From positions 495,194 through 559,193 of the forward strand of contig CAVWPK010000012.1 in NCBI GenBank assembly GCA_963756795.1: a stretch of DNA of 64,000 nt. Reading direction: 5' to 3'. Source of the stretch: an uncultured Actinomycetota bacterium. GTDB lineage: Bacteria; Actinomycetota; Actinomycetes; Propionibacteriales; Nocardioidaceae. The translations under genes and the position numbers were made by a program. Below, piece after piece: positions 24,600 to 64,000 of the stretch (position 1 is the first letter of the stretch; the number at the start of each line of letters is the position of its first letter). The notes under the pieces are model-generated. The model was not told where the DNA came from and did not search any database. It saw nothing but the letters and a program-made list of their open reading frames with translations.

Positions 24600-26027
24600 G
24601 TGCTGTCGGCGCCGTCGAGCCGCTCGCTGCGGCTCGTGCCGTTCTTCCTCGTCCTTCTCGACGTCGTGGTGATCGCCGCCGGCTCCGGGCTCGCGTCGTT
24701 CATCGACAGCAGCATGCCGATGTTCGACGCCGACGCCGCTGACAACCTGGCCAGTCGGACGATGGGCCCGGTGCTGACGCTCGGCTGGGTCCTTGTCATC
24801 GCGCTCGGCGGCGGCTACCGCAAGCAGGTGCTCGGCGGCGGCAGTGATGAGTACAAGCGGGTGCTCAACGCCACCCTCGCCTACACCGGTCTGCTGGCCC
24901 TGATCCTGCTCGTCGCCGAGGCCGACGTCTCTCGTGGATTCTTCCTCCTGCTCTTCGTCCTCGGGCTGCCGAGCCTGCTTCTTTCTCGCTGGGGCGCTCG
25001 GAACCTGCTCCACCGTGCGCGCAGTGCCGGCCACCTCGGTCTACCTGTGCTCATCGCCGGGTCCCCCGAGCACGTCGACGAGATTCACGGCGTACTCGAC
25101 CGCTCGCGGTGGCTGGGCTATCGAGTGGTCGGCGCGGTGACGCCGCCCGGCGACGCGAGCCACACCGTCGGCGGCGTGCCGGTCGTCGGCACCACCGACG
25201 ATCTCTCGACCGCCGCCCTGCAGGCCGACGCACAGCTCATCTTGTTCGCCGGCGGCTCGTCGACCTCGGCGCAGGATCTCCAGGAGAAGGTCTGGCAGGT
25301 CGAGGAGCGAGGAATCGGTGTCGTCGTGGCGCAGAGCGCCACCGGCATCATCATGAGCGACCGCGCGTCGTTCCGGCCGGTCGGTGGCCTCCCCCTGATG
25401 CACCTCGGTGCGCCGGCCTGGGCGCAGGCGACCCGCATCGGCAAGCGCACCTTCGACGTCGTCGGCGCGACGACCCTCCTGGTCGCCTTCAGCCCGCTGT
25501 TCCTCTTCATCGCCCTGCGGATCAAGCTGCACGACCGCGGCCAGGTGTTCTTCCAGCAGTCACGGGTCGGCCGGCAGGGCGTGCCGTTCCGCTGCGCCAA
25601 GTTCCGCACCATGGTCCCGAACGCCGAGGAGCTGCTCGCCGCACTCCACGCAGAGACGGGCTACGACGGCGGCCTGTTCAAGATGGAGGCCGACCCGCGG
25701 ATCACCAAGCCGGGTCGGTGGCTGCGTCGCTTCTCCTTCGACGAGCTCCCCCAGCTGTGGAACGTCGTACGCGGCGACATGAGCCTGGTCGGCCCCCGGC
25801 CGCCACTCCCCCACGAGGTGGCGCGCTACGACGTCGCCGCGCGCCGCCGCCTCCATGTGCGCCCCGGCATGACCGGTCTCTGGCAGGTCTCCGGCCGCTC
25901 GGACCTCTCCTGGGAGCACGCCATCCGGCTCGACCTCTACTACGTCGACCACTGGTCGATGCTCCAGGACCTGCACATCCTGTGGCGCACCCTCGGCGTC
26001 GTCATCCTCGGCCGGGGCGCCTACTAG
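24600..26027 (+). CDS. Priming polyprenyl glycosylphosphotransferase (WcaJ/WbaP-like sugar transferase)
   Basis: Five N-terminal TMs, KRTFDV, KFRTM, DELPQLWNV.RGDMSLVGPRP, RPGMTGLWQVSGRS, DLYYV. Confidence 0.95.
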   Translation: MLSAPSSRSLRLVPFFLVLLDVVVIAAGSGLASFIDSSMPMFDADAADNLASRTMGPVLTLGWVLVIALGGGYRKQVLGGGSDEYKRVLNATLAYTGLLALILLVAEADVSRGFFLLLFVLGLPSLLLSRWGARNLLHRARSAGHLGLPVLIAGSPEHVDEIHGVLDRSRWLGYRVVGAVTPPGDASHTVGGVPVVGTTDDLSTAALQADAQLILFAGGSSTSAQDLQEKVWQVEERGIGVVVAQSATGIIMSDRASFRPVGGLPLMHLGAPAWAQATRIGKRTFDVVGATTLLVAFSPLFLFIALRIKLHDRGQVFFQQSRVGRQGVPFRCAKFRTMVPNAEELLAALHAETGYDGGLFKMEADPRITKPGRWLRRFSFDELPQLWNVVRGDMSLVGPRPPLPHEVARYDVAARRRLHVRPGMTGLWQVSGRSDLSWEHAIRLDLYYVDHWSMLQDLHILWRTLGVVILGRGAY

Positions 26028-26149
26028 CCGAAGTGTCACGGTTGGCTGGCCGAAGTGTCACGGTTGGCTGGCCGAAGTGTCACCGTTGGCTGGCCGAAGT
26101 GTCACGGTTGGCTGGCCGAAGTGTCACGGTTGGCTGGCCGAAGTGTCAC
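26027..26149 (+). repeat. 22-bp tandem repeat, 5 full copies plus a partial copy (GCCGAAGTGTCACGGTTGGCTG)
   Basis: Read directly; units start at 26027, 26049, 26071 (one G>C change), 26093, 26115 and 26137 (partial). Confidence 0.97.
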
Positions 26150-26202
26150 ACCTCGCGGCACCAACACCGACACCTCGCGGCACCAACACCGACACCTCGC
26201 GG
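26148..26202 (-). repeat. Second 22-bp tandem repeat, 2.5 copies (ACACCTCGCGGCACCAACACCG)
   Basis: Units start at 26148, 26170 and 26192 (partial). Its reverse complement shares GAxGTGTC and GTTGG with the first array. Confidence 0.92.
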
Positions 26203-26207
26203 GGGGT

Positions 26208-27212
26208 TCACTCGTAGCCGAGCACTGACTTCCGCTTTTCGCCCCAGGCCAGCGCGGACGCGATCGCGTCGTCCAGGGAAGCCTCGGTCCGCCAGTCCAG
26301 CAGTTCGGCGGCCTTCTCTGCGTTGGCGAACGCGCCGACGGCGTCACCCGGCCGGGGTGGCGCCTCGGTCACCGGTACCGGCTTGCCGACCACACGCTCG
26401 ACGGCCGCGATCAGCTCCTTGACAGTGACGCCGTCGCCGCCGCCGAGGTTCAGGTAGGAGTACGGCGCACCCTCGGCCGCGATCACGTCGTCGAACCTCT
26501 CGACTGCGCGGACGTGCGCCTTCGCCAGGTCCCACGCGTGGATGTAGTCACGGATGCCGGTCCCGTCGCGGGTCGGCAGGTCGGTGCCGGTGATGGTGAA
26601 CGAGTCGCGGTAGCCCAGCGCGGTCTGCGCGAGCAGCGGTACGACGTGCGTTGCGTCCTTGACGTGGTAGCCCGTCTCGAGCTCCGGGTCGGTCCCGATC
26701 GGGTTGAAGTAGCGCAGGATGATCGCCCGCAGGCTGGTGGCCCGGGCGATGTCCTCCAGGCACATCTCCATCATCCGCTTGGTGCGGGCGTAGGGCGACG
26801 TCGGCTCGACGGGATCGGTCTCCCGGACCTCGAAGGCCGGCTGCAGCGCATAGAGCGACGCCGTCGACGAGAAGAGGATCCGCGGCTTGCCGAGCTGCTC
26901 GAGCTGGTCGAAGAGCTCCAGCGACTTCGCGACGTTGTCGCGGTAGTACTCGTAGGGCAGCTCGACGGACTCCGGTACGACGATCCGCGCCGCCATGTGA
27001 ATGGTGGCCTCGATCTCGGGGTGCTCCTCGACGATCCGGCTCAACAGCGCCCGGTCTGAGATGTCGCCCTCGTAGAAGGTCCGGTTCTCGGTGAACTTGC
27101 GGGGCCCGACGAGCAGCGAGTCGAGCAGCACCGGGGTGTGCCCCGCCTGCTCGAGCGCTTTCGAGGTGACCGAGCCGAGGTAGCCGGCGCCGCCGGTGAC
27201 GAGAACCTTCAT
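26208..27212 (-). CDS. galE: UDP-glucose 4-epimerase
   Basis: VTGGAGYLGS, YYRDNV, PYARTK, LRYFNPIG, TGIRDYIH, RRPGD-like PRPGD. Confidence 0.93.
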   Translation of the reverse strand: MKVLVTGGAGYLGSVTSKALEQAGHTPVLLDSLLVGPRKFTENRTFYEGDISDRALLSRIVEEHPEIEATIHMAARIVVPESVELPYEYYRDNVAKSLELFDQLEQLGKPRILFSSTASLYALQPAFEVRETDPVEPTSPYARTKRMMEMCLEDIARATSLRAIILRYFNPIGTDPELETGYHVKDATHVVPLLAQTALGYRDSFTITGTDLPTRDGTGIRDYIHAWDLAKAHVRAVERFDDVIAAEGAPYSYLNLGGGDGVTVKELIAAVERVVGKPVPVTEAPPRPGDAVGAFANAEKAAELLDWRTEASLDDAIASALAWGEKRKSVLGYE

Positions 27213-27236: not shown

Positions 27237-29129
<1,893 letters not shown>

Positions 29130-31249: not shown

Positions 31250-33148
31250 GTGTCGCGCCCCCCTCTCCCCCAGCACTGCCCGTCGCCGCGGGAGCTGGAC
31301 GACCTCGAGCTGCTGTCGGTCGGGGCGATGGCGCCGACGCTCGGGTTCAACGAACCGGGCAGCCCGGTCACCCTCGCCCTTCCTGACGAGCGGGCGTCGG
31401 AGGTCGCCGCCGGCGGCTCGGTCGAGCTGGTCGACCCGGAGGGCCTGCCCCTGGCCACGGTCACCGGCCGTGGGTCGGGCTGGTCGGTCCGGCCGCTGAC
31501 CCACGCGCAGTACGGCCCGTTCCGCCGCCTCTACCTACGTCCGGCCGACGTCCGGCAGCGGTACGCCGGCCGCACCTTCGTCACCGTCACCGATGCGACC
31601 AGCGACGAGCAGCTCGCCCAGCTCAAGGGGCTGGGCGCCATCACCCTGCTGGCCCTCGTCGGTCGGGGCACCCCCGCGCTGTCCCCCGTCGGTCTGCTCC
31701 GGGCCACGCTGCGCGTGGCCCGCCTGGTCGCCGAGGACGGTCCCGCGGCCGACGTGGTCGCCGTACCCCTCGCCGCGCACGGCGACGTCGCGGCGGACGC
31801 GACCCTGCGCGCACAAGTGATCGCCAACTACGCCGGACCGGATCGCGTCGTTGACCTCGCTCCCGGCGGGGTGCCCACCGCCGCCGTCGCCGACATCGTC
31901 CGCGCCGACCGGCCCACGCCGGACGAGCAAGGTCTGGTTCTCTTCTTCACCGGCCTCTCCGGGAGCGGCAAGTCGACCCTCGCCCAGGCGCTGATGGACC
32001 GCCTGCTCGAGCGCGGTGGGCGGTCCCTGACCAGCCTCGACGGCGACGTCGTCCGCCGGAACCTGTCGGCCGGGCTGACCTTCTCCAAGGAGGACCGGGA
32101 GACCAACATCCGCCGGATCGGCTGGGTCGCCGCCGAGGTCGCGCGGCACGGCGGTGTCGCGGTCTGCAGCCCGATCGCCCCGTTCGACGACACCCGCCAG
32201 CAGGTGCGGCAGTACGTCGCCGACGCCGGCGGCGCGTTCTTCCTGGTCCACGTCGCGACGCCGCTCGAGGAGTGCGAGCGTCGTGACCGGAAGGGCCTCT
32301 ACGCCAAGGCACGCCGCGGCGAGATCCCGGAGTTCACCGGCATCTCCTCGCCCTACGAGGAGCCCCACGACGCCGACGTACGCGTGGACACCACCGGCCG
32401 CTCGATCGACGAGGCGCTGGACGACGTACTCGTCGCGCTCCGCGACGCGGGCTACCTCAACCTGGTCGATGACGCCGCCCCGACGGCCGGCCGGACCGAG
32501 CCGGCGCCTGCGGTGGTCGAGATGCGGCCCGCGCCGACACCGCGCGCCGAACCGGCCGACCGCGCCGGCGACGGAGTCCGTGCCGGGGCCGCCCATCTCA
32601 GCGTCCTCTTCGTCTGTACGGCGAACATCTGCCGCTCGCCCTACATGGAGCTGCGGGCGGGCACCCTCCTGCTGCCCGACGGCCCGGTCACGATCGAGCT
32701 CGCCAGCGCGGGCACCCACGGCTTCCGCAAACGCGGTGTCGACGAGACCATGGCCGGCGTCCTCACCGACCGCGGCGTGAGCGGCGAGCGTATCGCCGGG
32801 TTCCGCAGCCAGCCGCTGACCCGCGCGCTGGTCGAGGTCGCCGACCTGGTGCTGACCGCCGAGTCCAGCCATCGCGCCTACCTGCTCGAGGAGGCGCCGG
32901 GCGCCTTCCGGAAGGTCTTCACCCTCGGCCAGTTCGCGGACACCGTGGCCCGCGTCGACGCCCAGGTCGTCGGCCCGGACCTGGTCGCCTTCGCAGGCCA
33001 CCGCAGGGCGGCCGCGGACCCCCGGCACGAGATCAGCGACCCGTTCAGCCGCGGTCGGGCTGCTGCCAACCGGGCAGCCGACCAGATCGACGGCCTGTTG
33101 CGCGTCGTCATGCCCCGTCTGACGGGCTCAGGAAGGATCCACCGATGA
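31250..33148 (+). CDS. cysC: Adenylyl-sulfate kinase fusion: degenerate Sat-like N-terminus + APS kinase + LMW protein-tyrosine phosphatase
   Basis: FTGLSGSGKST, LDGDVVRRNLS.GLTFSKEDR, RDRKGLY.KAR.GEI..FTGIS.PYEEP; C-terminal LFVCTANICRSP and ISDPF. Confidence 0.9.
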   Translation: MSRPPLPQHCPSPRELDDLELLSVGAMAPTLGFNEPGSPVTLALPDERASEVAAGGSVELVDPEGLPLATVTGRGSGWSVRPLTHAQYGPFRRLYLRPADVRQRYAGRTFVTVTDATSDEQLAQLKGLGAITLLALVGRGTPALSPVGLLRATLRVARLVAEDGPAADVVAVPLAAHGDVAADATLRAQVIANYAGPDRVVDLAPGGVPTAAVADIVRADRPTPDEQGLVLFFTGLSGSGKSTLAQALMDRLLERGGRSLTSLDGDVVRRNLSAGLTFSKEDRETNIRRIGWVAAEVARHGGVAVCSPIAPFDDTRQQVRQYVADAGGAFFLVHVATPLEECERRDRKGLYAKARRGEIPEFTGISSPYEEPHDADVRVDTTGRSIDEALDDVLVALRDAGYLNLVDDAAPTAGRTEPAPAVVEMRPAPTPRAEPADRAGDGVRAGAAHLSVLFVCTANICRSPYMELRAGTLLLPDGPVTIELASAGTHGFRKRGVDETMAGVLTDRGVSGERIAGFRSQPLTRALVEVADLVLTAESSHRAYLLEEAPGAFRKVFTLGQFADTVARVDAQVVGPDLVAFAGHRRAAADPRHEISDPFSRGRAAANRAADQIDGLLRVVMPRLTGSGRIHR

Positions 33149-34533
33149 GCGAGCTGCTCACACTCACGGCGTTGTCGATCGTCGCCGCCGGCTTCTTCGT
33201 CGGCGTGGTCGTCGGCCTCACCGGCATGGGCGGCGGCGCGCTGATGACGCCGGCGCTGATCTTCCTCGGGGTGGGCCACACGGCGTCCATCGTCACCGCG
33301 GACCTGACCGCGGCCGCGATCTACAAGACCGGCGGTGCGATCACCCACGCCCGGGAGGGCTCGCCCAACCTGCGGCTCGCCGGCTGGCTGATCGCCGGCT
33401 CGGTGCCGATGGCGTTCGTCGGGCCCTATCTCGTCGACGCGCTGACCGATGACACCGAGCAGCTGGAGAAGACCCTCAAGCTCTGCATCGGCATCGCCCT
33501 GCTGTTCGCCGCGTCGACCTACGCGTTGCGGCTCTACATCAACCTGCGCCGGGTGCGGAGCGGTGCGGCGACCCCGGCGGAGAACCCGCGGATCCGCCCG
33601 GTGCCGACGCTGCTGGTCGGCATGCTGGGCGGCCTGCTGGTCGGCATCACCAGCGTCGGCTCGGGCTCGGTCATCATGATCGCCCTGCTCATGCTCTACC
33701 CGGGCCTGTCGGCGGTGAAGCTGGTCGGCACCGACCTGGTCCAGGCGGTCCCGCTGGTGCTGAGCGCGGCGATCGCCAACATCCTCCTGCACGGCCTCGA
33801 CTGGAACCTGCTGATCCCGCTGGTGATCGGCTCGGTCCCCGGCACCATCATCGGCAGCCGGATCGCGCCACGAGTGCCGCAGTCCTTCATCCGCCGCGGG
33901 ATCGTCGTGGTGCTGACCATGTCCGGCGTTGCCCTGCTCTTCAAGGCCGGGCTGCACCCGTTCGGCGAGGGCCACGACACCCTCGAGGCGATCACGGTCG
34001 CCGGCGTCGGCGTCGTGATGCTCGCCCTGGTCCCGATCGTGTGGGGGATGCTGCGCAAGCAGCACGGACTGCCGATGTTCGGAGCGCCCACGGTGGCCGA
34101 GCTGGAGAAGATCCCGGGCGACCGGCGGGCGAGGAAGGCAGCCCACAAGTCAGCCCACAAGCCAGACCAGACCTCGGACCAGACCAGACCAGACCTCAGG
34201 CCCGAAGCAGCCCGAGTCGCGACCGTAGCTGTCGCGAGGTCCCGGCCGACGACCTCGGGGGTCTGCCGCGCGGTGAGCTGCGGAGGCGTCCGGTCAGGGA
34301 CGGAGGGGCGATCGACACGTGCACAGCTGCCGGCACCGGCCGGTGCCGCTCACCACTCCCACAGGGCCGAGATCGGGAGGCCCCACATGCCGGGGCGGTA
34401 CTTGAACCCCACGGACGCGGTGTTGAGCACGATCCCGCCGCGGAACCGGGAGCCCGCGCGGGCCGCGAGCGACTCGAGCGCCCGGAACTGGTGCGGGCGG
34501 AAGCCGGCCGCCGTCCGGATCTCGACCCCGTAG
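33145..34533 (+). CDS. TauE/SafE family sulfite/sulfonate exporter with a long low-complexity tail
   Basis: VGLTGMGGGALMTP, GITSVGSGS, LVGTDL, GSVPG..IGSR. The last ~140 aa look non-homologous. Confidence 0.85.
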   Translation: MSELLTLTALSIVAAGFFVGVVVGLTGMGGGALMTPALIFLGVGHTASIVTADLTAAAIYKTGGAITHAREGSPNLRLAGWLIAGSVPMAFVGPYLVDALTDDTEQLEKTLKLCIGIALLFAASTYALRLYINLRRVRSGAATPAENPRIRPVPTLLVGMLGGLLVGITSVGSGSVIMIALLMLYPGLSAVKLVGTDLVQAVPLVLSAAIANILLHGLDWNLLIPLVIGSVPGTIIGSRIAPRVPQSFIRRGIVVVLTMSGVALLFKAGLHPFGEGHDTLEAITVAGVGVVMLALVPIVWGMLRKQHGLPMFGAPTVAELEKIPGDRRARKAAHKSAHKPDQTSDQTRPDLRPEAARVATVAVARSRPTTSGVCRAVSCGGVRSGTEGRSTRAQLPAPAGAAHHSHRAEIGRPHMPGRYLNPTDAVLSTIPPRNREPARAASDSSARNWCGRKPAAVRISTP

Positions 34534-35132
34534 ACCGTGTCGTCGGGCAGTTCGACGAGGAGGTCGACCTCGAGCCCGTTGCGCTCGCGCAGGTGGCTGA
34601 GCCGGTAGTCCACCTCGCTGGCCTCGCGCTGCCGCAGCAGCTCGGCGATGGCGATGCCCTCGAGCAGGGGCGCGAGTCGGCTCCGGCCCTCGAACGCGGT
34701 CAGCCGGTCCGTGGACACGCCGGCCAGGTGGCGGGCGACGGCGGGGTCGGTGAAGACCACGCGCGGACGCTGGACCGCCCGCTTCGCCACCGGCGACCGC
34801 GATCCGGGCAGCAGCCGGACCAGACCGAGCCGTTCGACGACGTCGAGGTACGGCGAGATCGTGGTGGCCGGGATGCCGGCGAGGTCTGCGAGCCGCGCCT
34901 TGTTGAGCTCCGTCGACGGCGGTCGGGCGAGGGCCGCGGCGAGCGCCAGCAGGCGAGCGGGTTCCAAGCGGCGCAAGGACCGGGCGGCGCCGTACGCCAT
35001 CCGGTGGAGCTCGTCGTCGATCCCGTCGTCGCGGGCCATCAGCGCGACGTACTCCCCCACACCCCACCGCGAGTGCACCTCGTCCGGCACCGATGCCCGC
35101 GACCCGAGCCGGGCGACGAGATCGGCGGTCAC
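34350..35132 (-). CDS. DUF4143-domain protein (AAA+ ATPase/PD-(D/E)xK C-terminal part; no Walker A)
   Basis: YLDVVERLGLV, RPRVVFTDP, LLEG....ELLRQ, HLRERNGLEVDLLVE, GVEIR. Start uncertain. Confidence 0.7.
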   Translation of the reverse strand: MTADLVARLGSRASVPDEVHSRWGVGEYVALMARDDGIDDELHRMAYGAARSLRRLEPARLLALAAALARPPSTELNKARLADLAGIPATTISPYLDVVERLGLVRLLPGSRSPVAKRAVQRPRVVFTDPAVARHLAGVSTDRLTAFEGRSRLAPLLEGIAIAELLRQREASEVDYRLSHLRERNGLEVDLLVELPDDTVYGVEIRTAAGFRPHQFRALESLAARAGSRFRGGIVLNTASVGFKYRPGMWGLPISALWEW

Positions 35133-35232
35133 GGGCAGCAGCCTATGCGGAGGAGGGGACAAACTCGTAGATTTGTCTACGTCGTTCGCGCCGATGTCAC
35201 GCTGAAAGCCGGTGCATGGCACGATGCTCCGC

Positions 35233-37418: not shown

Positions 37419-37423
37419 CCTCC

Positions 37424-37476
37424 GAGCCTCGGGGCCGAGGCTCCTCGCACAGGGGGAGCCCGAACCCGGGGCTCAC
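37424..37476. terminator. Two hairpins between convergent cysN and the methyltransferase gene
   Basis: GAGCCTCGG gg CCGAGGCTC (perfect 9-bp stem) and GAGCCC..GGGCTC. Confidence 0.65.
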
Positions 37477-39500: not shown

Positions 39501-39601
39501 AGGTACCTCTCATCGAACGGGGCGCGACCACGACCAGCCGTGGGACCCCCCGTGACCATCACTCGCCGAGATCCTCGTCGCTCGCCGCTGAGCCCGGCAT
39601 C

Positions 39602-49427: not shown

Positions 49428-49431
49428 CCGC

Positions 49432-54595: not shown

Positions 54596-56428
54596 TCAGC
54601 AAGCGCTGCGCAGCGTCGTGGCCGACGAGCCCAGGAAGGCTCCTGGAGTCACGTCGAGCTCCACCGGGCCGGTCTGGCCCGGACCGGTGCGGAGCACGAA
54701 CTCGATCTCCTGCGTCTCGCCCCGGTCGAGCACCGTGACGACCTGGGCGACCGGTCGCCCGTCGAAGTCCTCGGTGACCACCGGGTCGAACGACCGCGAC
54801 TCGAGCGAGAGGTCCTCGATCTTCCCGTCGACGGGAGCCATCACGTAGACGGCGATCCGTTGCTGTCCGGGGTCGATCTCGTCGAAGAACCGGCCCCCGG
54901 GGAAGATGCCGGAGACCGACGGCGGAACCTCCAGCCCCTCGGGAACCGCATTGGTCAGCCGGATCGACCCGGCGACCTCCTGGGTGTACCCGGAGCAGGA
55001 GCGCGCGACCGCGACGGCTTCGTAGTCCAGGTAGTAGGTCATCTTGGACTCGAGCGCGTCGTTGACGTAGATCCCGACCTGGGCCTGCCCGTCCGCGGTC
55101 TCCAGCTCGCCGGCGATCTCGGTGTCGGCGATGTGCTCCTGCTCGGCGTCGACGAAGCTGTGCATCCGGATCCGACCCTCCGTGACGGCGGTGACCAAGG
55201 CACGGATCACTTCGACCGGGTCGCCGCGACCGGCAGCGAACGCGTTGAAGACCGCCTTGGCGACGGCGTTCTGGAAGTCCTCCTGCTTCGCCCGGTCGGT
55301 CACGGTGAGATAGATCTGGTTCTCGACCTTGGCGACGACGTCGACCGAGGTCACCGGCCCGTAGCCCGGTACGCCGACCGGGCCGGTCGCGGCGAGCAGG
55401 TAGGACACCGCGACCGGGTCGATGAAGAAGACGCCGTCGACGCGCCCGCCGAGCTCCTGCTGCCAGCGGGCCGCAGCGAACTTCGCTGCCCGGGTCGCGT
55501 CAGGAGTCATGCTGGCGTTCATGAACCACTGACCGAGAGTGGGTCCGAAGACCGCCTTCTCCCCGGGGGTGAGCGGGATGACGGGGCGGTTGATGGCGCC
55601 GTACTTGGAGGTTCCCTCCTGCTGGACGATCTCCACCTCGCCGGCGTCGGCGTGGATGAGCGAGATCGATCCGGCCAGGCCGCCCATGCTCCGCAGCTCC
55701 GCGTTGTTCTCGAACACGAGCAGGTGATCCCGCGCGGTCTCGGCGCCGAGCAGGCTGGGCATCAGGTCGGCGGCACGATAGGCGGAGCCGAGCGTCGCGC
55801 GGGCATCGAGGACGATGGACCGCAGCTCGGTGAAGCTGGTCGCGACGGGTCCGAGGAGTCCGCCCTCATCCACCGCCTCGAGCGCCGCGGCCGCGTCGTC
55901 GAACGCCTCCTCGCTCTCGCGGGCCGGCTCCCCGACAGACGAGATCGTCTCGAGAGGGAACCGGTTGTCCGCCGGGTTGAAGGAGCGTGCAGCGACCAGC
56001 TCGGCAGCGTCGACCAGCTGGGGGATGCCGTCGTTGCCGAGGTCGTCCAGCACCCGCGCGGCCGTGGCGACTGCCTCGGCATCGTCCCCGAAGCCCGGCA
56101 GCCGCTCGAGGGTCCACCACGTCGGACCGTCGGTGTGGCCGCGCGCACTGCCCGCGGCCGCCTGATAGCGCTCCAGCGCCCGGCTCGCACCGTCCGCGTC
56201 GCCGTTCTGGAGCTCCTGGCGCAGCAGCCGGGCGCTCCGCTCGACCTCGGTGAGGTCCTCGGCCGCTGACCACGCTGTCCAGCCGGCCCACATCAGAAAG
56301 AGGGCCACGACGACCGCTCCGCCGGCCAGCACCATCCGCGACGGGCGCTCCCGCAGCCAGGGCCAGAACGCCCGCAGTCCGCGTGGACGGCTGCGACGGC
56401 GGACCACGGGAGACACGCGGCACAGCAT
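54596..56428 (-). CDS. DUF4012 domain-containing membrane protein
   Basis: N-terminal TM, long helical region, FENNAELRSMGG..GS, IDPVAVSYLL..GPV, N....K..YYL. Confidence 0.88.
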   Translation of the reverse strand: MLCRVSPVVRRRSRPRGLRAFWPWLRERPSRMVLAGGAVVVALFLMWAGWTAWSAAEDLTEVERSARLLRQELQNGDADGASRALERYQAAAGSARGHTDGPTWWTLERLPGFGDDAEAVATAARVLDDLGNDGIPQLVDAAELVAARSFNPADNRFPLETISSVGEPARESEEAFDDAAAALEAVDEGGLLGPVATSFTELRSIVLDARATLGSAYRAADLMPSLLGAETARDHLLVFENNAELRSMGGLAGSISLIHADAGEVEIVQQEGTSKYGAINRPVIPLTPGEKAVFGPTLGQWFMNASMTPDATRAAKFAAARWQQELGGRVDGVFFIDPVAVSYLLAATGPVGVPGYGPVTSVDVVAKVENQIYLTVTDRAKQEDFQNAVAKAVFNAFAAGRGDPVEVIRALVTAVTEGRIRMHSFVDAEQEHIADTEIAGELETADGQAQVGIYVNDALESKMTYYLDYEAVAVARSCSGYTQEVAGSIRLTNAVPEGLEVPPSVSGIFPGGRFFDEIDPGQQRIAVYVMAPVDGKIEDLSLESRSFDPVVTEDFDGRPVAQVVTVLDRGETQEIEFVLRTGPGQTGPVELDVTPGAFLGSSATTLRSAC

Positions 56429-56566: not shown

Positions 56567-58087
56567 GTGGATTTCAAGCAGTTCTTGCTGGTACTGCGTC
56601 GTCGCTGGCGAAGTGTCGTCCTCGTCTTCCTGCTCGCCGTCGGAGTGGCCGGCGGGATCTCCTACGCCCTCACGCCGATGTATGAGTCGACGGCCAAGGT
56701 CTTCCTGTCCGTCAACACGAAGAGCGCCACCGACGCCTCTGCGGTGACGTACTTCCTCAACACCCGGGCCCAGTCCTACGCGGACCTCGCCCAGAGCTCT
56801 GAGCTGGCCGGGCGCGTGATCGAGGTGCTCGACCTCGACAAGACGCCGGCCGAGCTGTCGAGCCAGGTCTCGACCGAGGTGGTCGAGGAGACGTCCCTGA
56901 TCATGATCACCATCTCCGACGAGAACCCCAACGAGGCGCAGACGATCGCCGACGTGGTGACCAGCGAGTTCCAGGCCTACACCGAGGAGCTCGAGACTGT
57001 CGGCGACAGCGGCGAGTCGCAGGTGGTCGTCCACATCACCGACCCGCCCGAGTACGACGGCAGACCGGTCAGCCCCAACTGGCTGCTCAACATGCTCGCC
57101 GGTGGGCTGATCGGGCTGCTGGTCGGCCTGGCACTCGCCGTCTCCCGGGAGCTGCTCGACCGCACGGTGCGCACTGCCGACCACATCGCCGAGGTCACCG
57201 ATGCGCCCGTCCTCGCGAGCATCGGCTTCGACTCCGACATCCGATCCGCGCCGCTCCTCACGGACCTCGGCGCGTTCGCCGTCCGGACCGAGGCGTTCCG
57301 CCTCCTCCGCACGAACCTCCAGTTCATCGACCTCGACCAGCGGGCACGCGTGCTCGTCGTCACCAGCGCGGTGCCGGGCGAGGGCAAGACGATGACGTCG
57401 ACCAACCTGGCGGTCGCACTGGCCCAGACCGGTCGCACCGTGCTGATCATCGACGCCGACCTCCGACGGCCACGGGTGGCCAGCTCGCTCGGCGTCGACC
57501 CGGCCATCGGTCTGACGACCGCACTGGTCGGCAAGACCCAGATCGAGGACGCGATCCAGGTGCACGAGCCCAGCGGGCTGCACGTGCTCGCGAGCGGCGC
57601 CAAGCCGCCGAACCCGACCGAGATCCTCCAGTCGCGGGTGACCCACGACCTCATCCGGCGGTTGCGGCAGTCCTACGACATGATCATCATCGACGCGCCG
57701 CCGCTGCTGCCCGTCGCCGACGCCTCGGTGCTCTCGACGCTCGCCGACGGCTCGATCCTGGTCGTCCGGCACGCCCAGACCACGCGCGACCAGATCAAAG
57801 AAGCAGTCAACCGCGTCAACCAGGTCGGCGGTCGGTTGTACGGAGTCGTCGTCAACATGGTCGCGAAGCGGGCGATCGGCAGCTACTACTACTACTACTA
57901 CGAGGAGACGTCCCCGATGCGGGACGGCAAGGGCCGCAACAACACGCCGAAGGCCAAGGCGAAGGCCAAGGCGACGCCCAGGAGCACCGGCGGCACCCGC
58001 AAGGCGCTGACTCCCTCATCGTCCTCATCGTCATCTCCCGCTGAGGACAGCGCCCCGGAGGACGGCGGCAGGCGCAAGGCCGAGTAG
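56567..58087 (+). CDS. Polysaccharide co-polymerase / tyrosine autokinase (Wzc/CpsCD fusion)
   Basis: Wzz-like N-terminus, EAFR.LRTNL, Walker A SAVPGEGKT, IDADLRRP, IIDAPP, Tyr cluster SYYYYYYEE. Confidence 0.95.
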   Translation: MDFKQFLLVLRRRWRSVVLVFLLAVGVAGGISYALTPMYESTAKVFLSVNTKSATDASAVTYFLNTRAQSYADLAQSSELAGRVIEVLDLDKTPAELSSQVSTEVVEETSLIMITISDENPNEAQTIADVVTSEFQAYTEELETVGDSGESQVVVHITDPPEYDGRPVSPNWLLNMLAGGLIGLLVGLALAVSRELLDRTVRTADHIAEVTDAPVLASIGFDSDIRSAPLLTDLGAFAVRTEAFRLLRTNLQFIDLDQRARVLVVTSAVPGEGKTMTSTNLAVALAQTGRTVLIIDADLRRPRVASSLGVDPAIGLTTALVGKTQIEDAIQVHEPSGLHVLASGAKPPNPTEILQSRVTHDLIRRLRQSYDMIIIDAPPLLPVADASVLSTLADGSILVVRHAQTTRDQIKEAVNRVNQVGGRLYGVVVNMVAKRAIGSYYYYYYEETSPMRDGKGRNNTPKAKAKAKATPRSTGGTRKALTPSSSSSSSPAEDSAPEDGGRRKAE

Positions 58088-58089
58088 CC

Positions 58090-58674
58090 GTGCTGAGCAC
58101 GATCGAGGCAGACCTCCGCGCGAACGTCGACCACACGATCCGCACCGGGCTCGGTTTCTGGGTCTGGGTGATGGGCAAGGCGATCGTGGCACCGCAGGTG
58201 CAGGTCGTCGTACTCCACCGGTTCGCCTCGGCGCTGGCGCACACACCGCTGCGTCCGCTCGCCTTCCTCCTCCGCTCGATCGGCCTGGTGTGGTCCGGGG
58301 CGGAGATCCACCCCGACGCCGAGCTCGGACCGGGCCTCGCGCTGGTGCACTCCAACGGCGTGGTGATCGGTCCTGGCGTCCGCACCGGTGTCGACTGCCG
58401 GATCAACCCGGGCGTCGTCCTGGGGGAACCCGGCCGGGGCAGCTCGGGTGACTACGGCTTCCCCGTGCTCGGCGACCACGTGACGATCGGCGCACATGCC
58501 GTCGTGCTCGGCACCATCCACATCGGCGACGGCTCCGTCGTCGGCGCCAACTCCGTGGTCCGCGGTGACGTCCCCGCCAACGTTGTCGTCATCGGGTCGC
58601 CGACCAAGATCGTGCGCCGACTGGTGCCCTACGAGGACGACCCGACCCGCGCGACGGCGGCACCCGCCGGGTAA
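58090..58674 (+). CDS. Hexapeptide-repeat O-acetyltransferase (CysE/WcaB-like)
   Basis: EIHPDA.LGPGL...H, P.LGDHV.IG, IGDGSVVGANSVV..DVP. Confidence 0.88.
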   Translation: MLSTIEADLRANVDHTIRTGLGFWVWVMGKAIVAPQVQVVVLHRFASALAHTPLRPLAFLLRSIGLVWSGAEIHPDAELGPGLALVHSNGVVIGPGVRTGVDCRINPGVVLGEPGRGSSGDYGFPVLGDHVTIGAHAVVLGTIHIGDGSVVGANSVVRGDVPANVVVIGSPTKIVRRLVPYEDDPTRATAAPAG

Positions 58675-58726: not shown

Positions 58727-59935
58727 TCAGCGAACGGCGAGCAGCTCCTCGAGCACGTCCTCCACCACGTCGACCGGGATGTCGATGTCGTCGACGATGC
58801 CCGTCGGCTCCCGGCCCTCGGGCAGCGTGCCGGCACCGACCAGGTAGCGGTAGTGGATGCCGCCGATCGCCTCGGCGATCGTCCAGAGTCCGAGGTGGAC
58901 ATAGCTGCCCGCGAACAGCTCGAGTACCCGGACCCCGGGGCGGCTCCAGGTGAGGTTCGTGAGCGCCGCGCCGTGGGGCGCGATGATCACCTCGGCGCCG
59001 AAGAAGACGTCGATCTGCTCCTGCACGGTCAGCGTGCCGGGGTCGAGCATGACGAAGCCCCGCGCCTCGAGCCGCGGCCAGAGCACGGACTCTTGGAGAT
59101 AGCGCCGCCCGCCGGGCTGCTGCCCGCGGGAGAGGTAGAGCCGGGCGGGGGTGCCGGTCCGTCCGCTCGGGGGCAGTCGCTTACGCAGCCACTCGGTGGC
59201 CGAGCGAGGCGCGTCGAGGTCCTGGTTGGGCGTGCTCGGGACCAGGAGCCGGTCGGCTCGGATGGTCCGGTCTGCGCGGGGCTGGACGAAGGGGCCGGTG
59301 ATCCCGGCCAGCTCCAGGATCTGGCGCTGGTAGCCGCTCTGGTGCGGCACCACGATCGCGTCGACCCGCTCGCCCGGAAGGGTCTCCTCGAAGATGCCGT
59401 AACGGGCGACCGCGTCGTAGAGGAAGTGGTAGTAGTTCACGGCCGTGCCACGGGCGGTGAGGCTCAGCACGGTGCCGGCGACATGCTCGATCTGGGGCAG
59501 CCGCGGCCCCAGGAAGACCGGGTGCTCGCGCCAGCCGGCGAGACCGAAGTAGCCACTGGTCTGGTAGTCGAGGATGCCGCCGGGCGTCACGGTCGCCGCG
59601 TAGTCGCCGACCAGCCGGCCGTCACGTACGTCGAGCAGATAGCGGGCCGGGATCTCGGCATGGCGACCGCGCTCGAAGACCCAGTGCCGGGGTGGCCGGC
59701 CCGAAGCGGGGCCGCGCTCGACGATCTCCGCCGGGCCGTCCGGGTGGAGCGTGACCGCGCCCGGCTCCCGTGCCGCCGTCTCGGCGGAGGCGACGGTCGC
59801 GGTGCGGGGCAGGCCGCGATCACCGAGCAGCCGGCCGAGTGGACGGAACACCACGCCGGCGAGCACGGACAGGAAGCGGTGCACCCGCTTGAGGACCGGC
59901 CACGCGGGCTGCAGCCTGGCGGGAAGTCTGCTCAC
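58727..59935 (-). CDS. Glycosyltransferase family 61 (DUF563) protein
   Basis: NYYHFLYD, LYLSR, EQIDVFFGAEVII.PHGAALTNL.W, VLELF. Confidence 0.9.
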   Translation of the reverse strand: MSRLPARLQPAWPVLKRVHRFLSVLAGVVFRPLGRLLGDRGLPRTATVASAETAAREPGAVTLHPDGPAEIVERGPASGRPPRHWVFERGRHAEIPARYLLDVRDGRLVGDYAATVTPGGILDYQTSGYFGLAGWREHPVFLGPRLPQIEHVAGTVLSLTARGTAVNYYHFLYDAVARYGIFEETLPGERVDAIVVPHQSGYQRQILELAGITGPFVQPRADRTIRADRLLVPSTPNQDLDAPRSATEWLRKRLPPSGRTGTPARLYLSRGQQPGGRRYLQESVLWPRLEARGFVMLDPGTLTVQEQIDVFFGAEVIIAPHGAALTNLTWSRPGVRVLELFAGSYVHLGLWTIAEAIGGIHYRYLVGAGTLPEGREPTGIVDDIDIPVDVVEDVLEELLAVR

Positions 59936-60975
59936 TGCCCCACCAGCCGGCGTACGACGCGCCAGACGACCGGGATCTCCAGCACCCGGCGCACCACGGC
60001 TCGCATCCAGAGCGGCCGGATCAGCCTGCGGGCCAGCCGCGAGAGCCGGCCGTCGGTCCGGAGCAGCACCAGCTCGAGCTCGCCCTCGGCGTCGCGGTTG
60101 AGCTCGACCACCGGCGGGTGCTGGAGCGGGAAGTCGAGCGACTCGGCCGGCACCGGCAGCTTGTCGGCCCGGGTGTGGGTCGCTCCCTCGCCGTACCCGT
60201 CGTGCTCGACGAGGTTGACGCACGGCATGACCGACAGCCCCTGGCGGGACATGATCGTCACCCACCAGTGGTGGTCCCAGCCGTAGCGGTCGCCGTCGGG
60301 CTCGGTGGACACGAACGTGAAGTGCCGCAGCGCGGCCTCGGTGACCAGCGCGTCGGGGTGGGGTACGGCGGGGTGGGTGCGCTGGGCGGGCGCGGTGCGG
60401 GGGATCTCGTCGACCCGGTCCTCGGCACCGGCATGGTCGCGGTTGAACTCGGCCCGGTGGTCGTGCCAGCGGTCCGCCCAGGTCGCCCAGCCCCACACGC
60501 TCGCCCAGGTGCTGAAGCCGTAGCTGTGGCCACCGAACATCTCCTTCGGGACCAGGTGGGTGTCCCCGCCGATCTGCCAGATCCGCTTCTCCTCGGCGTA
60601 ACGGCCGAGCAGCTCGTCGGCGTACCGGAAGAACGACGGGTCGGGGATGCAGTCGTCCTCGAGCACGATCGCCCGGTCGACCTGGGAGAACACCCAGTCG
60701 AGGCCGAGCTCGACGTTGGCCTCGAGCCCGAGGTTGCGCTCGGCGTACTTGCGCTCCACCTTGCACGGCCAGTCGATCTCGCCGACGAGGTCGCGTACGG
60801 CGGCGCACCGGGCAGCCTCGTCGGGCCGGTCGGGGCGCGGCCCGTCGGCGACGATGAACAGCTGCTCGGGCCGCACCTGTCGCAGCACCTCGAGGTTGCG
60901 CCGGGTGACGTCCGGGCGCCGGAAGACGATCAGGACGACCGGCGTCTGCAGCCCGTCAGCGGGCACGATCAGCAC
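59932..60975 (-). CDS. GT-A-fold nucleotide-diphospho-sugar transferase-like protein (HlpA-like)
   Basis: FRRPD, ADGPR, LEDDC.PDPSFF, WGWATWADRW, WDHHW. Confidence 0.75.
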   Translation of the reverse strand: MLIVPADGLQTPVVLIVFRRPDVTRRNLEVLRQVRPEQLFIVADGPRPDRPDEAARCAAVRDLVGEIDWPCKVERKYAERNLGLEANVELGLDWVFSQVDRAIVLEDDCIPDPSFFRYADELLGRYAEEKRIWQIGGDTHLVPKEMFGGHSYGFSTWASVWGWATWADRWHDHRAEFNRDHAGAEDRVDEIPRTAPAQRTHPAVPHPDALVTEAALRHFTFVSTEPDGDRYGWDHHWWVTIMSRQGLSVMPCVNLVEHDGYGEGATHTRADKLPVPAESLDFPLQHPPVVELNRDAEGELELVLLRTDGRLSRLARRLIRPLWMRAVVRRVLEIPVVWRVVRRLVGQ

Positions 60976-61996
60976 TCCTCTGTGTCATCCGGGAAGCGAC
61001 GCGCGCGGCACTGGTGGCGGCGCGGCTGTTGACCGCCGCCCGAGCGGCGCGGCGCAGTCTAGGCGACCTGATCAGCCTGCGGCCCAGTCGGGCCGCCGGG
61101 CCGCCGACCCGGTTGAGGTGGAGCTCCAGCTCGCGCTCGACGTCGACGTCGAGCGCCACCTGTTCCGGGTGGCGCAGCGGGAAGTCCATCGGCTCGGCCG
61201 GGTCGTCCTCGCGGCCCGGCGAGTACCCGTGGGTCGCGTCCTCCCCGAACCCGCTGTTGACGACCAGGTTCCCCGACGGTGCGATCGCCAGTCCCCCCTC
61301 GGACATGATCGTGATCCACCAGTGCTTGTCCCACCCGTGGGTGACCACGTCGGACGACCGAGCGGCCTCGGCGAAGTGCCGCTGACCGGCCCGGGTCACC
61401 AACGTCCCTGGCGCCGGTACGGCGGCCACGGTGCGGGTGGGCGCGTCACCGGCATCGGCGGCGGAGCGTCGTACGTGATCGCGCGGGAAGACGGCGCGGT
61501 GCCGCTGCCAGCGGTCGGCCCAGGTCGCCCAGCCCCAGACGCTCGCCCAGGTGCTGAAGGCATAGCTGTCGCCCTTGTAGAGCCTGCGTGGTACCCCGTG
61601 CCGGTTGCCGGCGATCTGCCACACCCGGTCGTCGTCGCGATAGCGGTCGAGGAGCTCCTCGGCGAACCGGAAGAAGGTCGGGTCCGGCGTGCAGTCGTCC
61701 TCGAAGATCATCGCCGCGGACACCTGCGAGAAGACCCAGTCGAGGCCGAGCTCGACGTTGCCCTCGACGCCGAGGTTGACCTCCGAGAAGCGCCGCCGGA
61801 CGTCGCACGGCCAGTCGATCTCGTCGAACACCGCTCGGGTCTCGGCGCACAGCGCCGCATCCTCGGGCCGGTCGTCGCGCGGTCCGTCCGCCACGAGGAA
61901 CACCTGCTGGGGTGCGGCTTCCCGGATCGCGGCGAGGGTGCGGCGAGCCAGGTGGGGGCGATTGAACGCGATCAGCACGACGGGCGTGGAGAGCAC
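60956..61996 (-). CDS. GT-A-fold transferase-like protein, paralog of the adjacent gene
   Basis: FNRPH, ADGPR, FEDDC.PDPTFF, WGWATWADRW, WDKHW. GTG 61996 follows an AGAAAGG RBS. Confidence 0.75.
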   Translation of the reverse strand: MLSTPVVLIAFNRPHLARRTLAAIREAAPQQVFLVADGPRDDRPEDAALCAETRAVFDEIDWPCDVRRRFSEVNLGVEGNVELGLDWVFSQVSAAMIFEDDCTPDPTFFRFAEELLDRYRDDDRVWQIAGNRHGVPRRLYKGDSYAFSTWASVWGWATWADRWQRHRAVFPRDHVRRSAADAGDAPTRTVAAVPAPGTLVTRAGQRHFAEAARSSDVVTHGWDKHWWITIMSEGGLAIAPSGNLVVNSGFGEDATHGYSPGREDDPAEPMDFPLRHPEQVALDVDVERELELHLNRVGGPAARLGRRLIRSPRLRRAARAAVNSRAATSAARVASRMTQRSADRAR

Positions 61997-62081
61997 GAAG
62001 GCCCCCGCCTTTCTGTCAGCCTTCCGGTCAGGTCGTGGATCATTCCACCAGACGCACGACCCTCGTTTACAGTTGCCCACT

Positions 62082-63158
62082 GTGCCCCCCTCTGAGAGCC
62101 AGCTCGTCGCAAAGCTGAAGCGTGCCAACCCTTCCCTCGCGAGCTCCTGGGCCAAGCGTCAGGTGCGGTCGGTGGCCGCTCGCGGCGGCTACCTGGTCAC
62201 CAAGATGGACGACGAGGCCCGCCGCTACGCGCGGGTCTCCCACAACGACGCGGTGCCGCTGCCCGAGGGCGCGGAGGAGACCCTCCGCGTGGACAACCCC
62301 AAGCTCGTGGAGCTGCAGGCGAAGTACGACGCCCTCGACGTGTCGGCGACCGCGCACACCCAGTGGCGCCAGTCCTTCCTCAAGCGCAACCTGTCACTCG
62401 CCTGGTTCCGCGGCGACAACGCCTACGTGTGGCAGTTCCGCCAGCTGCGCAACGCCGCCAACGCCCGGATGTACCTCACGCTGCTCGACGTGGAGTCCCG
62501 CGACCGGCTCGGCCTGCTCAAGCGGCTGGAGGAGGACGGGAAGTTCGGCGCGTGGACCTTCACCTACGGCAACCGGTCCCCGGTGAGCCGCGACCTGCTC
62601 GACAGCGTCAACGAGATCAGCTACCTCGACGCCCAGATGGGCCTGAGCAGCATCGACTCGCTCAAGGTCCTCGACATCGGCGCCGGCTACGGCCGGCTCG
62701 CGCACCGGGCGTCGGCCGCGCTGCCCAACCTGTCGGCGTACGACTGCATCGACGGCGTCGCCACCTCGACGTTCCTGTGCGACTACTACCTCGACTACCG
62801 CAAGGTCCCGAAGTCGGTGCGGGCGGTGCCGCTGCCCGAGTGGGAGACTCTCGCCGACGACTACGACATCGCGATCAACGTCCACAGCTTCTCGGAGTGC
62901 TCGCTCGAGGCGATCGGCTGGTGGCTGGACCGGATCGCGGAGCGCAACATCGACTGGCTGTTGATCGTGCCGAACACCCCGCACCAGCTGCTCAGCACCG
63001 AGCTCGACGGCTCGATGCAGGACTTCGCCCCGATGGTCCGCGCGGCCGGCTACGTGCAGGTCGACGAGCGGCCGGTCTTCGAGAACGACGAGCTCCGTGA
63101 GCTGATCGACCTGCACGACACCTTCCACCTGTTCCGTCGGTCGGGGTCCGGTTCGTGA
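62082..63158 (+). CDS. Putative sugar O-methyltransferase
   Basis: SRDLLDSVNEI, VLDIGAGYGRLA, INVHSFSEC. Start approximate. Confidence 0.82.
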   Translation: MPPSESQLVAKLKRANPSLASSWAKRQVRSVAARGGYLVTKMDDEARRYARVSHNDAVPLPEGAEETLRVDNPKLVELQAKYDALDVSATAHTQWRQSFLKRNLSLAWFRGDNAYVWQFRQLRNAANARMYLTLLDVESRDRLGLLKRLEEDGKFGAWTFTYGNRSPVSRDLLDSVNEISYLDAQMGLSSIDSLKVLDIGAGYGRLAHRASAALPNLSAYDCIDGVATSTFLCDYYLDYRKVPKSVRAVPLPEWETLADDYDIAINVHSFSECSLEAIGWWLDRIAERNIDWLLIVPNTPHQLLSTELDGSMQDFAPMVRAAGYVQVDERPVFENDELRELIDLHDTFHLFRRSGSGS

Positions 63159-64000
63159 GGAAGGTCGTCGGCGACGACGAAAGGGCTCGATCCACCCTCT
63201 GGATGGAGGAGAGGCTGCGGCGCTACTCCGCAGCGACCACCCACCGGATCCTCGCGAGACGGGGACAGTCGCTGGGCATGTGGATGGGAGTCGGGTTCCC
63301 GAAGTCCGGCACCAACTGGCTCTGCGAGCTGATGGGCACGACCCTCGGGCTGCCGGTCCCGGTCGACTACCAGCTGCCGATCATGTTCAAGTCAGTCGTC
63401 CACTCGCACTACACCTACAACGAGCGGTTCCCCAACGCGGTCTACATCCGACGCGACGGACGCGACGTGATGACGTCGTTCTACTTCTACTGGACCCGCG
63501 CGACGCAGATGAACAAGAACCCCCGGTTCTCCCGCGGGATCCGCGAGATCTTCGACCACCTCTACGGACCGGCGTTCGACGCGGCGGACGTGCAGGGCAA
63601 CCTGCCGAAGTTCATCGAATACCAGATGACCGTCGCCCCGACGACGATCGGCATCCCGTGGCACGCCCACGTGCGGGAGTGGTGGGACCGTCCTCGGGTC
63701 GGTCACGTGACGTTCGAGGGCCTGCTCGCCGACCCGGTCGAGGAGATGGTCCGGGCGCTCCGTGCCGCGAGCGGCGAGGACCCGCGCCGGGACCTGGTCG
63801 AGCTCGCCGTGCAGCGGCACGACTTCTCCAACAGTGCCGGCCGCACCTCGGGCGAGGAGGACCGGCGCGCATTCCGGCGCAAGGGAGCGTCGGGCGACTG
63901 GCGCAACCACTTCACCCGCGAGGCGGGCCAGGTCTTCGACTCCTACGCCGGCGCCGAGCTGGTCGAGTTCGGCTACGCCGCCGACCGCACCTGGTTCGAA
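63155..64000 (+). CDS. PAPS-dependent sulfotransferase (Sulfotransfer_1), 3'-truncated by the window edge
   Basis: Translated by hand: 5'-PSB GFPKSGTNW, 3'-PB RDGRDVMTSFY, C-terminal RKGASGDWRNHF. The GTG overlaps the previous TGA. Confidence 0.92.
   Translation, partial: MRKVVGDDERARSTLWMEERLRRYSAATTHRILARRGQSLGMWMGVGFPKSGTNWLCELMGTTLGLPVPVDYQLPIMFKSVVHSHYTYNERFPNAVYIRRDGRDVMTSFYFYWTRATQMNKNPRFSRGIREIFDHLYGPAFDAADVQGNLPKFIEYQMTVAPTTIGIPWHAHVREWWDRPRVGHVTFEGLLADPVEEMVRALRAASGEDPRRDLVELAVQRHDFSNSAGRTSGEEDRRAFRRKGASGDWRNHFTREAGQVFDSYAGAELVEFGYAADRTWFE

Follow-up and report, generated by a model that had tools for sequence, protein, structure and literature searches.

A glycan cassette with two predicted sulfotransferases near the core sulfate-activation genes of a soil Nocardioides

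The stretch of DNA analysed here (the window, 64,000 nucleotides, C12:495194-559193) belongs to a soil Nocardioides with a genome of 4.14 Mb (70% GC, 14 contigs). It contains the sulfate-activation genes cysD, cysN and cysC, genes for the synthesis of surface glycans and, at its 3' end, a cassette in which the gene of a Wzc-type tyrosine kinase is accompanied by glycosyltransferase (GT) and sulfotransferase genes (Table 1). Third-position GC served for gene calling, and Pfam and NCBIfam for typing; start codons are approximate. An initial annotation had interpreted positions 24.6-64 kb as one dispersed locus for a sulfated, methylated and acetylated surface polysaccharide with its own supply of 3'-phosphoadenosine 5'-phosphosulfate (PAPS), and every gene that it named was found at about the position it had given. 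For comparison within the genus, 121 Nocardioides genomes were used, 82 of them of high quality. The closest named species by CysC protein are Nocardioides as well, with N. bizhenqiangii at 87% identity.

The sulfotransferase cassette

The putative sulfated-glycan unit proper is the segment of 54.6-69.4 kb, which extends from the DUF4012 gene to genes past the window. The product of its first sulfotransferase gene, ST1, scored 65.2 bits against PF00685 (cut-off 22). The ST1 segments PKSGTNW, RDGRDVMTSFY and RKGASGDWRNHF aligned with estrogen sulfotransferase (1hy3), and the protein carries the 5'-phosphosulfate loop (PKxGTxW), the 3'-phosphate motif (RxxxDxxxS) and the RKGxxGDWxxHF motif. Its GTG start overlaps the stop codon of the O-methyltransferase gene by 4 nt (GTGA), while its own stop codon is located 9 nt outside the window; the O-methyltransferase harbors the motif VLDIGAGYG. 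This gene context suggests that the acceptor of ST1 is a sugar.

Past 64 kb, where the initial annotation had pointed to possible further genes of the pathway, a second sulfotransferase (ST2) and a flippase-like membrane protein with nine transmembrane (TM) segments were found. ST2 matched the heparan sulfate 3-O-sulfotransferases 3bd9 (8.6e-16) and 1t8t (3.1e-15). Its segments GAQKSGTT, RDPVARAYS and KEIFFF aligned with GVRKGGTR, REPTTRAIS and QEIHFF, corresponding to the 5'-phosphosulfate-binding motif, the 3'-phosphate-binding motif and the catalytic Glu, respectively. The GTG start of ST2 lies 11 nt ahead of the stop codon of the 9-TM gene (11-nt overlap). Judged by gene order and overlapping reading frames, both predicted sulfotransferases sit within a Wzc-type glycan cassette and appear translationally coupled, and the cassette probably makes a sulfated, methylated and acetylated surface glycan.

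Orthologues of the cassette were present in N. panacisoli, also beside a rhodanese gene, with identities of 52% (DUF4012), 67% (Wzc), 69% (GT61), 80% (GT-A), 76% (GT2), 75% (O-methyltransferase), 73% (ST1) and 81% (a short-chain dehydrogenase/reductase, SDR); the 9-TM protein is 46% identical to its N. panacisoli and metagenome orthologues. A soil metagenome contig holds the same cassette plus a Wzy_C gene. The ST1 family was further found in a capsule-type cluster of Arthrobacter castelli together with LCP, Wzc, a low molecular weight protein tyrosine phosphatase (LMW-PTP, Wzb), CapD, Wzx, Bac_transf and four sulfotransferases. Within the genus, a strong match to adenosine 5'-phosphosulfate (APS) kinase was obtained in about 104 of the 121 genomes (79/82 of high quality) and PF13469 sulfotransferases in 115 (80/82), while ST1 orthologues were detected in 2-3 of 120. 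As cysC is near-universal and ST1 is not, the cassette is a rare accessory island on a genus-wide PAPS branch. Correlating the presence and absence of cysC with that of sulfotransferases across the genus gave no information, since nearly all genomes have both.

Sulfate activation, PAPS consumers and the genomic backbone

By tblastn against the whole genome, cysD, cysN and cysC each occur in one copy, and a Sat-type ATP sulfurylase (PF01747) was not found in the genome. CysDN, a GTP-driven ATP sulfurylase encoded by two genes with a TGATG overlap, is the only sulfate-activating enzyme and must therefore also supply cysteine synthesis. The cysN gene and the duplicated Methyltransf_24 gene converge, and the 55 nt between them (37419-37472) contain a GC-rich hairpin (GCCTCGGGGCCGAGGC), likely a bidirectional terminator.

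As the initial annotation had claimed, cysH and sir are absent from the window. Both were located on contig C14, where cysH is flanked by the genes of sulfite reductase and CbiX (sir-cysH-cbiX), so that the separate assimilation locus it had envisaged does exist. The motifs of this CysH (DLCCKLRKV...GCWPCT...ECGIH) correspond to CC-X~80-CXXC followed by a C-terminal ECGIH, the Fe-S signature by which bacterial APS reductases are told from PAPS reductases (PMC1175818). With such a CysH, cysteine synthesis here can do without PAPS, which leaves CysC as a side branch to PAPS. On the motif evidence, APS from CysDN can enter the Fe-S APS reductase and the sulfite reductase encoded on the other contig, and the single CysC is the only route to PAPS, with the product going to sulfotransferases. 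The earlier proposal that PAPS serves sulfation and not cysteine is borne out by the APS-reductase signature, and a role of cysC as a reductive-assimilation gene was rejected on the same motif. The genome contains three PAPS_reduct domains, namely in CysD, in the C14 CysH and in a protein encoded on C11. The latter is no hidden second CysD: a single frame of 823 codons (C11:346092-348563) joins PAPS_reduct to an NAD-dependent epimerase/dehydratase, with GT2 genes on either side. An Stf0-like sulfotransferase gene (C11:364465-365253) lies about 17 kb from this fusion.

Family scans yielded about nine sulfotransferase genes which, with the Stf0-like gene on C11, makes at least ten in at least five places. 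Three of them belong to a second glycan locus (C12:209-227 kb) with Wzy_C, Wzx (Polysacc_synt), two GT4 and a Bac_transf paralogue; the same region (C12:209000-227000) also encodes two large surface proteins with DUF5122, PA14 and Big domains. One sulfotransferase gene adjoins genes of a GDP-mannose dehydratase and a GT4. A Sulfotransfer_3 gene (C12:702137-703339, E 1e-58), of which about half of the Nocardioides genomes have a strong orthologue, is surrounded by genes of a luciferase-like monooxygenase, an alpha/beta hydrolase, an SDR and a cytochrome P450, and from these surroundings it probably encodes a small-molecule or lipid enzyme. With at least ten sulfotransferases, the PAPS pool is shared: several of its sinks are glycans, and at least one is probably not. 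In the comparison genome G076 (C18:21502-24254), a second APS kinase copy is located 2 kb from a Sulfotransfer_3 gene and is possibly a truly dedicated PAPS supply.

The cysC neighbourhood was compared with those of N. bizhenqiangii, N. kongjuensis, N. thalensis and strain WS12. The conserved backbone consists of amidase, (priming GT), epimerase, (rml/PMI, phosphomannose isomerase), DUF2516, HTH, CysC, TauE, (UDP-glucose dehydrogenase), DUF4143, CysD, CysN, YgfZ, Fur, nitrobindin, DsrE, GDSL and Dtd. Thus synteny places cysC-tauE...cysDN among the core loci of the genus. The GalE-like epimerase was syntenic in all four relatives; the priming GT was present in N. bizhenqiangii and N. thalensis and absent in N. 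kongjuensis and WS12. Neither rmlC nor rmlD is in the window; these genes and those of UDP-glucose dehydrogenase and PMI, all neighbours of cysC in relatives, were undetectable near cysC here, and with the RmlCD fusion of relatives as query only a weak RmlC-like match was obtained, far off at C12:292752. In N. kongjuensis and WS12, ygfZ directly follows cysN, which identifies 37473-45323 of the window (GC 0.678 versus 0.70) as a variable island. N. thalensis has other GTs at this site. In N. bizhenqiangii, two Stf0-like genes are followed there by orthologues of the duplicated Methyltransf_24 gene and of the long GT4, so that this island carries sulfotransferases of its own; the Stf0-type pair are paralogues directly downstream of cysN (CP141059.1, locus 17435-19038). 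At 47686-50616 one GDSL gene belongs to the backbone, and the other GDSL gene and the GT4 were probably inserted. The window holds three methyltransferase genes with four domains. Housekeeping genes (ygfZ, fur, nitrobindin, dsrE, dtd, BKACE, thioredoxin, rhodanese) cut the stretch into segments. It is made up of variable islands set in a conserved backbone and is not the one dispersed locus of the initial annotation.

The start of tauE overlaps the stop of cysC (ATGA coupling). In Corynebacterium glutamicum the DUF81 protein CysZ is required for growth on sulfate (PMC1266029), and by analogy TauE is probably a sulfate/sulfite permease of this kind. The tauE frame is about 120 codons longer at the C-terminus than those of relatives (333-344 aa). 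It runs into the 3' end of the DUF4143 gene, at a place occupied in relatives by a gene for UDP-glucose dehydrogenase that is missing from this genome; a deletion probably extended the frame.

Table 1. Genes of the window and of the adjoining end of the cassette, in window coordinates
Feature	Position	Strand	Match or remark
Priming GT, polyprenyl-phosphate sugar-phosphate transferase (CoA_binding_3 + Bac_transf, 5 TM)	24600-26027	+	PF02397 4.6e-67
GalE-like NAD-dependent epimerase, conserved backbone gene	26208-27212	-	PF01370 3.7e-46
RmlA, glucose-1-phosphate thymidylyltransferase	27237-28105	-	PF00483 4.7e-64; start approximate; match in C-terminal 290 aa of a long open reading frame (ORF), 289/289 aligned to relatives
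RmlB, dTDP-glucose 4,6-dehydratase	28137-29129	+	PF16363 8e-66; start approximate
Three-domain CysC (APS kinase + LMW-PTP)	31253-33148	+	PF01583 7.2e-58, PF01451 8.4e-15, TIGR00455; longest ORF from 31133
TauE/DUF81 membrane protein, 9-10 TM	33145-34533	+	PF01925 3.8e-44
DUF4143 gene	34350-35234		3' end overlapped by TauE frame
CysD	35212-36147	+	NF003587 1.5e-134
CysN	36147-37418	+	TIGR02034 2.7e-169
Duplicated Methyltransf_24 protein (two methyltransferase domains)	37473-39500	-	Pfam
TPR-methyltransferase	39602-40978	-	Pfam
GT4, 1047 aa	40989-44132	-	Pfam
LCP ligase	44280-45323	+	Pfam
GDSL/SGNH hydrolases, two genes	47686-48555 and 48450-49427	+	Pfam
GT4, second gene	49432-50616	-	Pfam
DUF4012 protein, 1 TM, large extracytoplasmic part	54596-56428	-	PF13196 1.1e-37
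Wzc-type tyrosine kinase / polysaccharide co-polymerase	56567-58087	+	Wzz, GNVR, AAA_31
Hexapeptide-repeat O-acetyltransferase	58090-58674	+	PF00132 7.8e-12; 2 nt past wzc
GT61	58727-59935	-	PF04577 5.5e-21
GT-A-like	59932-60960	-	without Pfam match
GT2	60980-61996	-	PF00535
NanM-like putative sugar O-methyltransferase	~62088-63158	+	TIGR04371 2.6e-10, slightly below cut-off
ST1, Sulfotransfer_1/SULT-like, 284 aa, soluble	63155-64009	+	PF00685 8.2e-18
ST2, heparan-3-OST-like, outside window	64016-64846 (window-equivalent)	-	PF00685 48.8 bits
9-TM flippase-like gene, outside window	64836-~66080	-	
Two SGNH-like unknowns, then Methyltransf_23 gene	beyond window, out to ~69.4 kb		

The three-domain CysC and its linkage to Wzc

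CysC (about 630 aa) is composed of a Sat-like N-terminal domain, an APS kinase domain and a C-terminal LMW-PTP domain. By sequence, it matched the hexameric APS kinase of Thiobacillus denitrificans (PDB 3cr8) at 3.9e-66, in which an ATP-sulfurylase-like N-terminal domain likewise precedes an active APS kinase. The N-terminal domain was modelled by AlphaFold at a pLDDT of 85-95, and together with the kinase it superposed in Foldseek on 3cr8, the top hit with about 500 columns, and on ATP sulfurylases. A 22-sequence profile returned only an insignificant 0.4-bit stretch of Sat likeness, the likeness having come from the fold comparison. Sequence inspection showed that the domain is without the catalytic QxRN and HxxH motifs; the corresponding domain of 3cr8 is inactive. 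The kinase domain is canonical. In contrast to 3cr8, the Nocardioides protein adds the LMW-PTP domain (PF01451, 55.7 bits), which is closest to YwlE and Wzb and in which the CX5R(S) motif (VCTANICRS) and the DP motif (ISDPF) are intact. Both motifs are invariant in 22 homologues and also occur in the genomes G042, G074 and G035. Over 100 proteins of Nocardioides and Pimelobacter share the architecture, each annotated as plain adenylyl-sulfate kinase, and no description of an APS kinase/LMW-PTP fusion was found in the searchable literature. Some Nocardioides CysC frames are only about 400 aa long, so that a split form with a separate phosphatase may be common. This fusion and its linkage to Wzc are the part of the locus that looks new.

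The Wzc of the window is the only tyrosine kinase of its type in the genome. It shows the Walker A (GEGKT), A' (IIDADLRRP) and B (IIIDAPP) motifs and a GSYYYYYYEE tail of a bacterial tyrosine kinase and class 2 polysaccharide co-polymerase. Wzc homologues were detected in 89 of the 121 genomes. Among the 62 other genomes with Wzc and cysC on one contig, the nearest Wzc was less than 40 kb from cysC in 55 and less than 10 kb in 16, with a median of 19.6 kb (24.6 kb here). Two genes placed at random in a genome of 4.2 Mb would lie within 40 kb of each other in about 2% of cases, and cysC and wzc cluster more than by chance. In about ten genomes Wzc is 2-3 kb from cysC and in most others 10-40 kb, on either side; with position and distance varying in this way, the linkage has survived rearrangements. 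In G074 the order is cysC-tauE-wzc followed by DUF4012, between cysC and cysDN, and in G055 a separate LMW-PTP gene stands between cysC and tauE, with wzc after tauE; in G042 and G035 wzc is on the opposite side of cysC. DUF4012 is a conserved companion of Wzc in Nocardioides and adjoins it in N. panacisoli, G042 and G074. When the Wzc-adjacent Wzb of A. castelli was used as query, its best and sole match in this genome was the domain fused to CysC. Within the aligned part, many of the relatives' Wzc matches contain a single TGA or TAG in frame, probably where the alignment overruns a shorter C-terminus into the low-complexity tail.

Interpretation and comparison with known systems

With moderate confidence, we regard the locus as an envelope-glycan neighbourhood around core sulfate-activation genes, with strain-specific islands, in which the cassette is the sulfated-glycan unit. 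In the proposed mechanism, the cassette would build a heteroglycan repeat unit on undecaprenyl phosphate, which the soluble O-methyltransferase, the acetyltransferase, ST1 and ST2 would decorate at the cytoplasmic face with PAPS drawn from the shared cellular pool. The 9-TM protein would flip the decorated glycan, Wzc and DUF4012 would control assembly and export, and the LCP enzyme may attach the glycan to the wall. Of the initial annotation, this retains glycan sulfation, carried by two coupled sulfotransferases in a Wzc-type cassette, and gives up the dedicated supply and the single locus. The fused LMW-PTP could moreover act as a Wzb-type phosphatase partner of Wzc, which would link PAPS production to polysaccharide assembly genus-wide. 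We put forward only tentatively, and think it rather doubtful, that sulfated envelope glycans are a general Nocardioides trait in which the CysC-borne Wzb phosphatase co-regulates sulfate-donor supply and polymer export via one polypeptide, with cysC-(ptp)-tauE near wzc-DUF4012.

Several observations weigh against these proposals. Of the export genes looked for past 64 kb, the flippase-like 9-TM gene was found, but neither a Wzy polymerase nor an ABC exporter was detected in 1-72 kb (TM scan of 1-80 kb, Pfam of upstream genes), and 24-72 kb contained no other multi-TM candidate for Wzy; polymer formation is therefore not secured. For the 9-TM protein, Pfam returned nothing at E<=1, and BLAST did not relate it to the Wzx or Wzy of the second locus of this genome or of A. 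castelli. With this protein unclassified and Wzy and ABC exporter missing, the product may alternatively be a short unpolymerised glycan or a glycolipid. Between the priming GT and the cassette lie 30 kb; not all relatives have this GT, and the genome encodes two paralogues of it. Fe-S CysH enzymes of the Bacillus subtilis type are able to use PAPS too (PMC1175818). A search of public sequencing runs with 56.6-64 kb retrieved only soil metagenome DNA (at most 16% of sampled words) and no RNA. As to Wzc, the compared genomes are related, so that its linkage to cysC is largely one inherited state. The genome has two further LMW-PTP genes, one a far better Pfam match, and the Wzb role of the fused domain is for this reason only a putative one.

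Part of this evidence would fit cassette sulfotransferases that modify a small molecule or, in the manner of mycobacterial sulfolipids, an acylated glycolipid instead of a polysaccharide. ST1 is most similar to cytosolic small-molecule sulfotransferases (SULTs), Wzy is missing, genes of an SDR, a methyltransferase and an AMP-binding protein come after the cassette, and N. panacisoli has a gene of a PapA_C acyltransferase at the corresponding place; the Stf0-type genes by cysN in N. bizhenqiangii and the conserved sulfotransferase among P450, SDR and luciferase-like genes point in the same direction. However, ST2 resembles heparan 3-O-sulfotransferases and is coupled to a multi-TM transporter-like gene, while ST1 is coupled to a sugar O-methyltransferase, is flanked by three GTs, Wzc and DUF4012 and belongs to a family that recurs in Wzc/Wzx/Wzy clusters, which renders a small-molecule or lipid acceptor improbable. 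We assign a similarly low probability to a co-location without meaning, in which housekeeping sulfate genes sit by broad genus synteny in a recombination-prone glycan region where the cassette landed, and the LMW-PTP has a role unrelated to Wzc, e.g. regulating CysC or another phospho-substrate. This would agree with the two other LMW-PTP genes, with the occurrence of the fusion also in genomes without detected Wzc (32 of the 121 gave no match) and with a Sulfotransfer_3 gene that is found, among the matches listed, about 175-220 kb from cysC in four relatives. It is at odds with a linkage that outlived rearrangements, with the gene order of G055, in which a standalone phosphatase takes the same place, and with the finding that a genuine Wzb encoded beside Wzc has its closest homologue in the fused domain.

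Least probable of all, in our view very unlikely, is the dispersed locus of the initial annotation, in which cysDN, cysC and TauE of 24.6-64 kb would be the dedicated PAPS supply of one polymer. All parts do lie inside 40 kb, Wzc is linked to cysC genus-wide, and the capsular polysaccharide cluster of Cobetia marina, in which cysNC, cysD, cysQ, a permease and a sulfotransferase occur together, is a precedent (PMC11766843). Yet the single-copy cysDN is needed for cysteine, cysC belongs to the genus core whereas the ST1 cassette does not share its distribution, and one pool has to serve all sulfotransferases of the genome, including the three of the second Wzx/Wzy locus and the one in P450/SDR context. 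Housekeeping genes, moreover, divide the segments, and the islands vary among relatives.

Sulfated polysaccharides are valued biomaterials and still considered rare in bacteria. One of them, synechan (xss) of Synechocystis PCC 6803, is Wzx/Wzy-dependent; this cyanobacterial system differs from the present one by an outer-membrane export component, another GT set and the lack of a CysC-phosphatase fusion. Synechan is described as a sulfated exopolysaccharide (EPS) with in-cluster sulfotransferases (PMC8205485). Such polymers were called essentially cyanobacterial, with one only predicted in actinomycetes (PMC13390465). The nearest precedent is wps-1 of Actinoplanes missouriensis, for which a sulfated EPS was predicted in 2026 without chemical proof, in a paper that makes no mention of cysC or PAPS (PMC13390465). 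Both clusters are actinobacterial and combine a Wzz/Wzc-like protein and a methyltransferase with a pair of sulfotransferases from two families, of which one is heparan-sulfate-like; wps-1 has Wzx, a recognisable Wzy and GH26, whereas the present cassette is without Wzy and has DUF4012, GT61 and an acetyltransferase. In the capsule cluster of Cobetia marina KMM 1449, for which the sulfated structure was solved (PMC11766843), rml genes, GTs, a sulfotransferase and PAPS-synthesis genes occur together as they do here. Export there is of the Gram-negative ABC/Kps type and the cys genes are inside the cluster, while in the present genome cysDN and cysC belong to the core, occur once and are shared with assimilation. 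In Mycobacterium tuberculosis, APS has two fates: reduction by an Fe-S APS reductase on the way to cysteine, or conversion by CysC to PAPS for use by sulfotransferases (PMC4373884, PMC1175818). The branch-point logic of its CysD-CysNC/CysH system is the same, but CysC is fused to CysN in M. tuberculosis and a separate three-domain protein here, and sulfation in mycobacteria is known for lipids and small molecules, not for glycans of the Wzc type. A literature search for Nocardioides and sulfotransferase gave nothing relevant by title and abstract, with one paper citing Nocardioides for teichoic acid only.

The locus thus offers a Gram-positive cassette that is compact and open to testing and in which the two sulfotransferases differ, in a genus of which nearly all genomes retain sulfotransferases and an APS kinase dispensable for cysteine synthesis. 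Should the CysC phosphatase indeed serve Wzc, it would connect sulfur-donor metabolism in a new way with the regulation of how capsule or EPS is assembled; should the polymer be unsulfated or the enzymes lipid-directed, this would be an ordinary variable glycan locus beside housekeeping sulfur genes. Further downstream, after the SDR, methyltransferase and AMP-binding genes, a gene for a tyrosinase that includes a DUF7868 domain was observed about 13 kb outside the window (C12:572276-573736).

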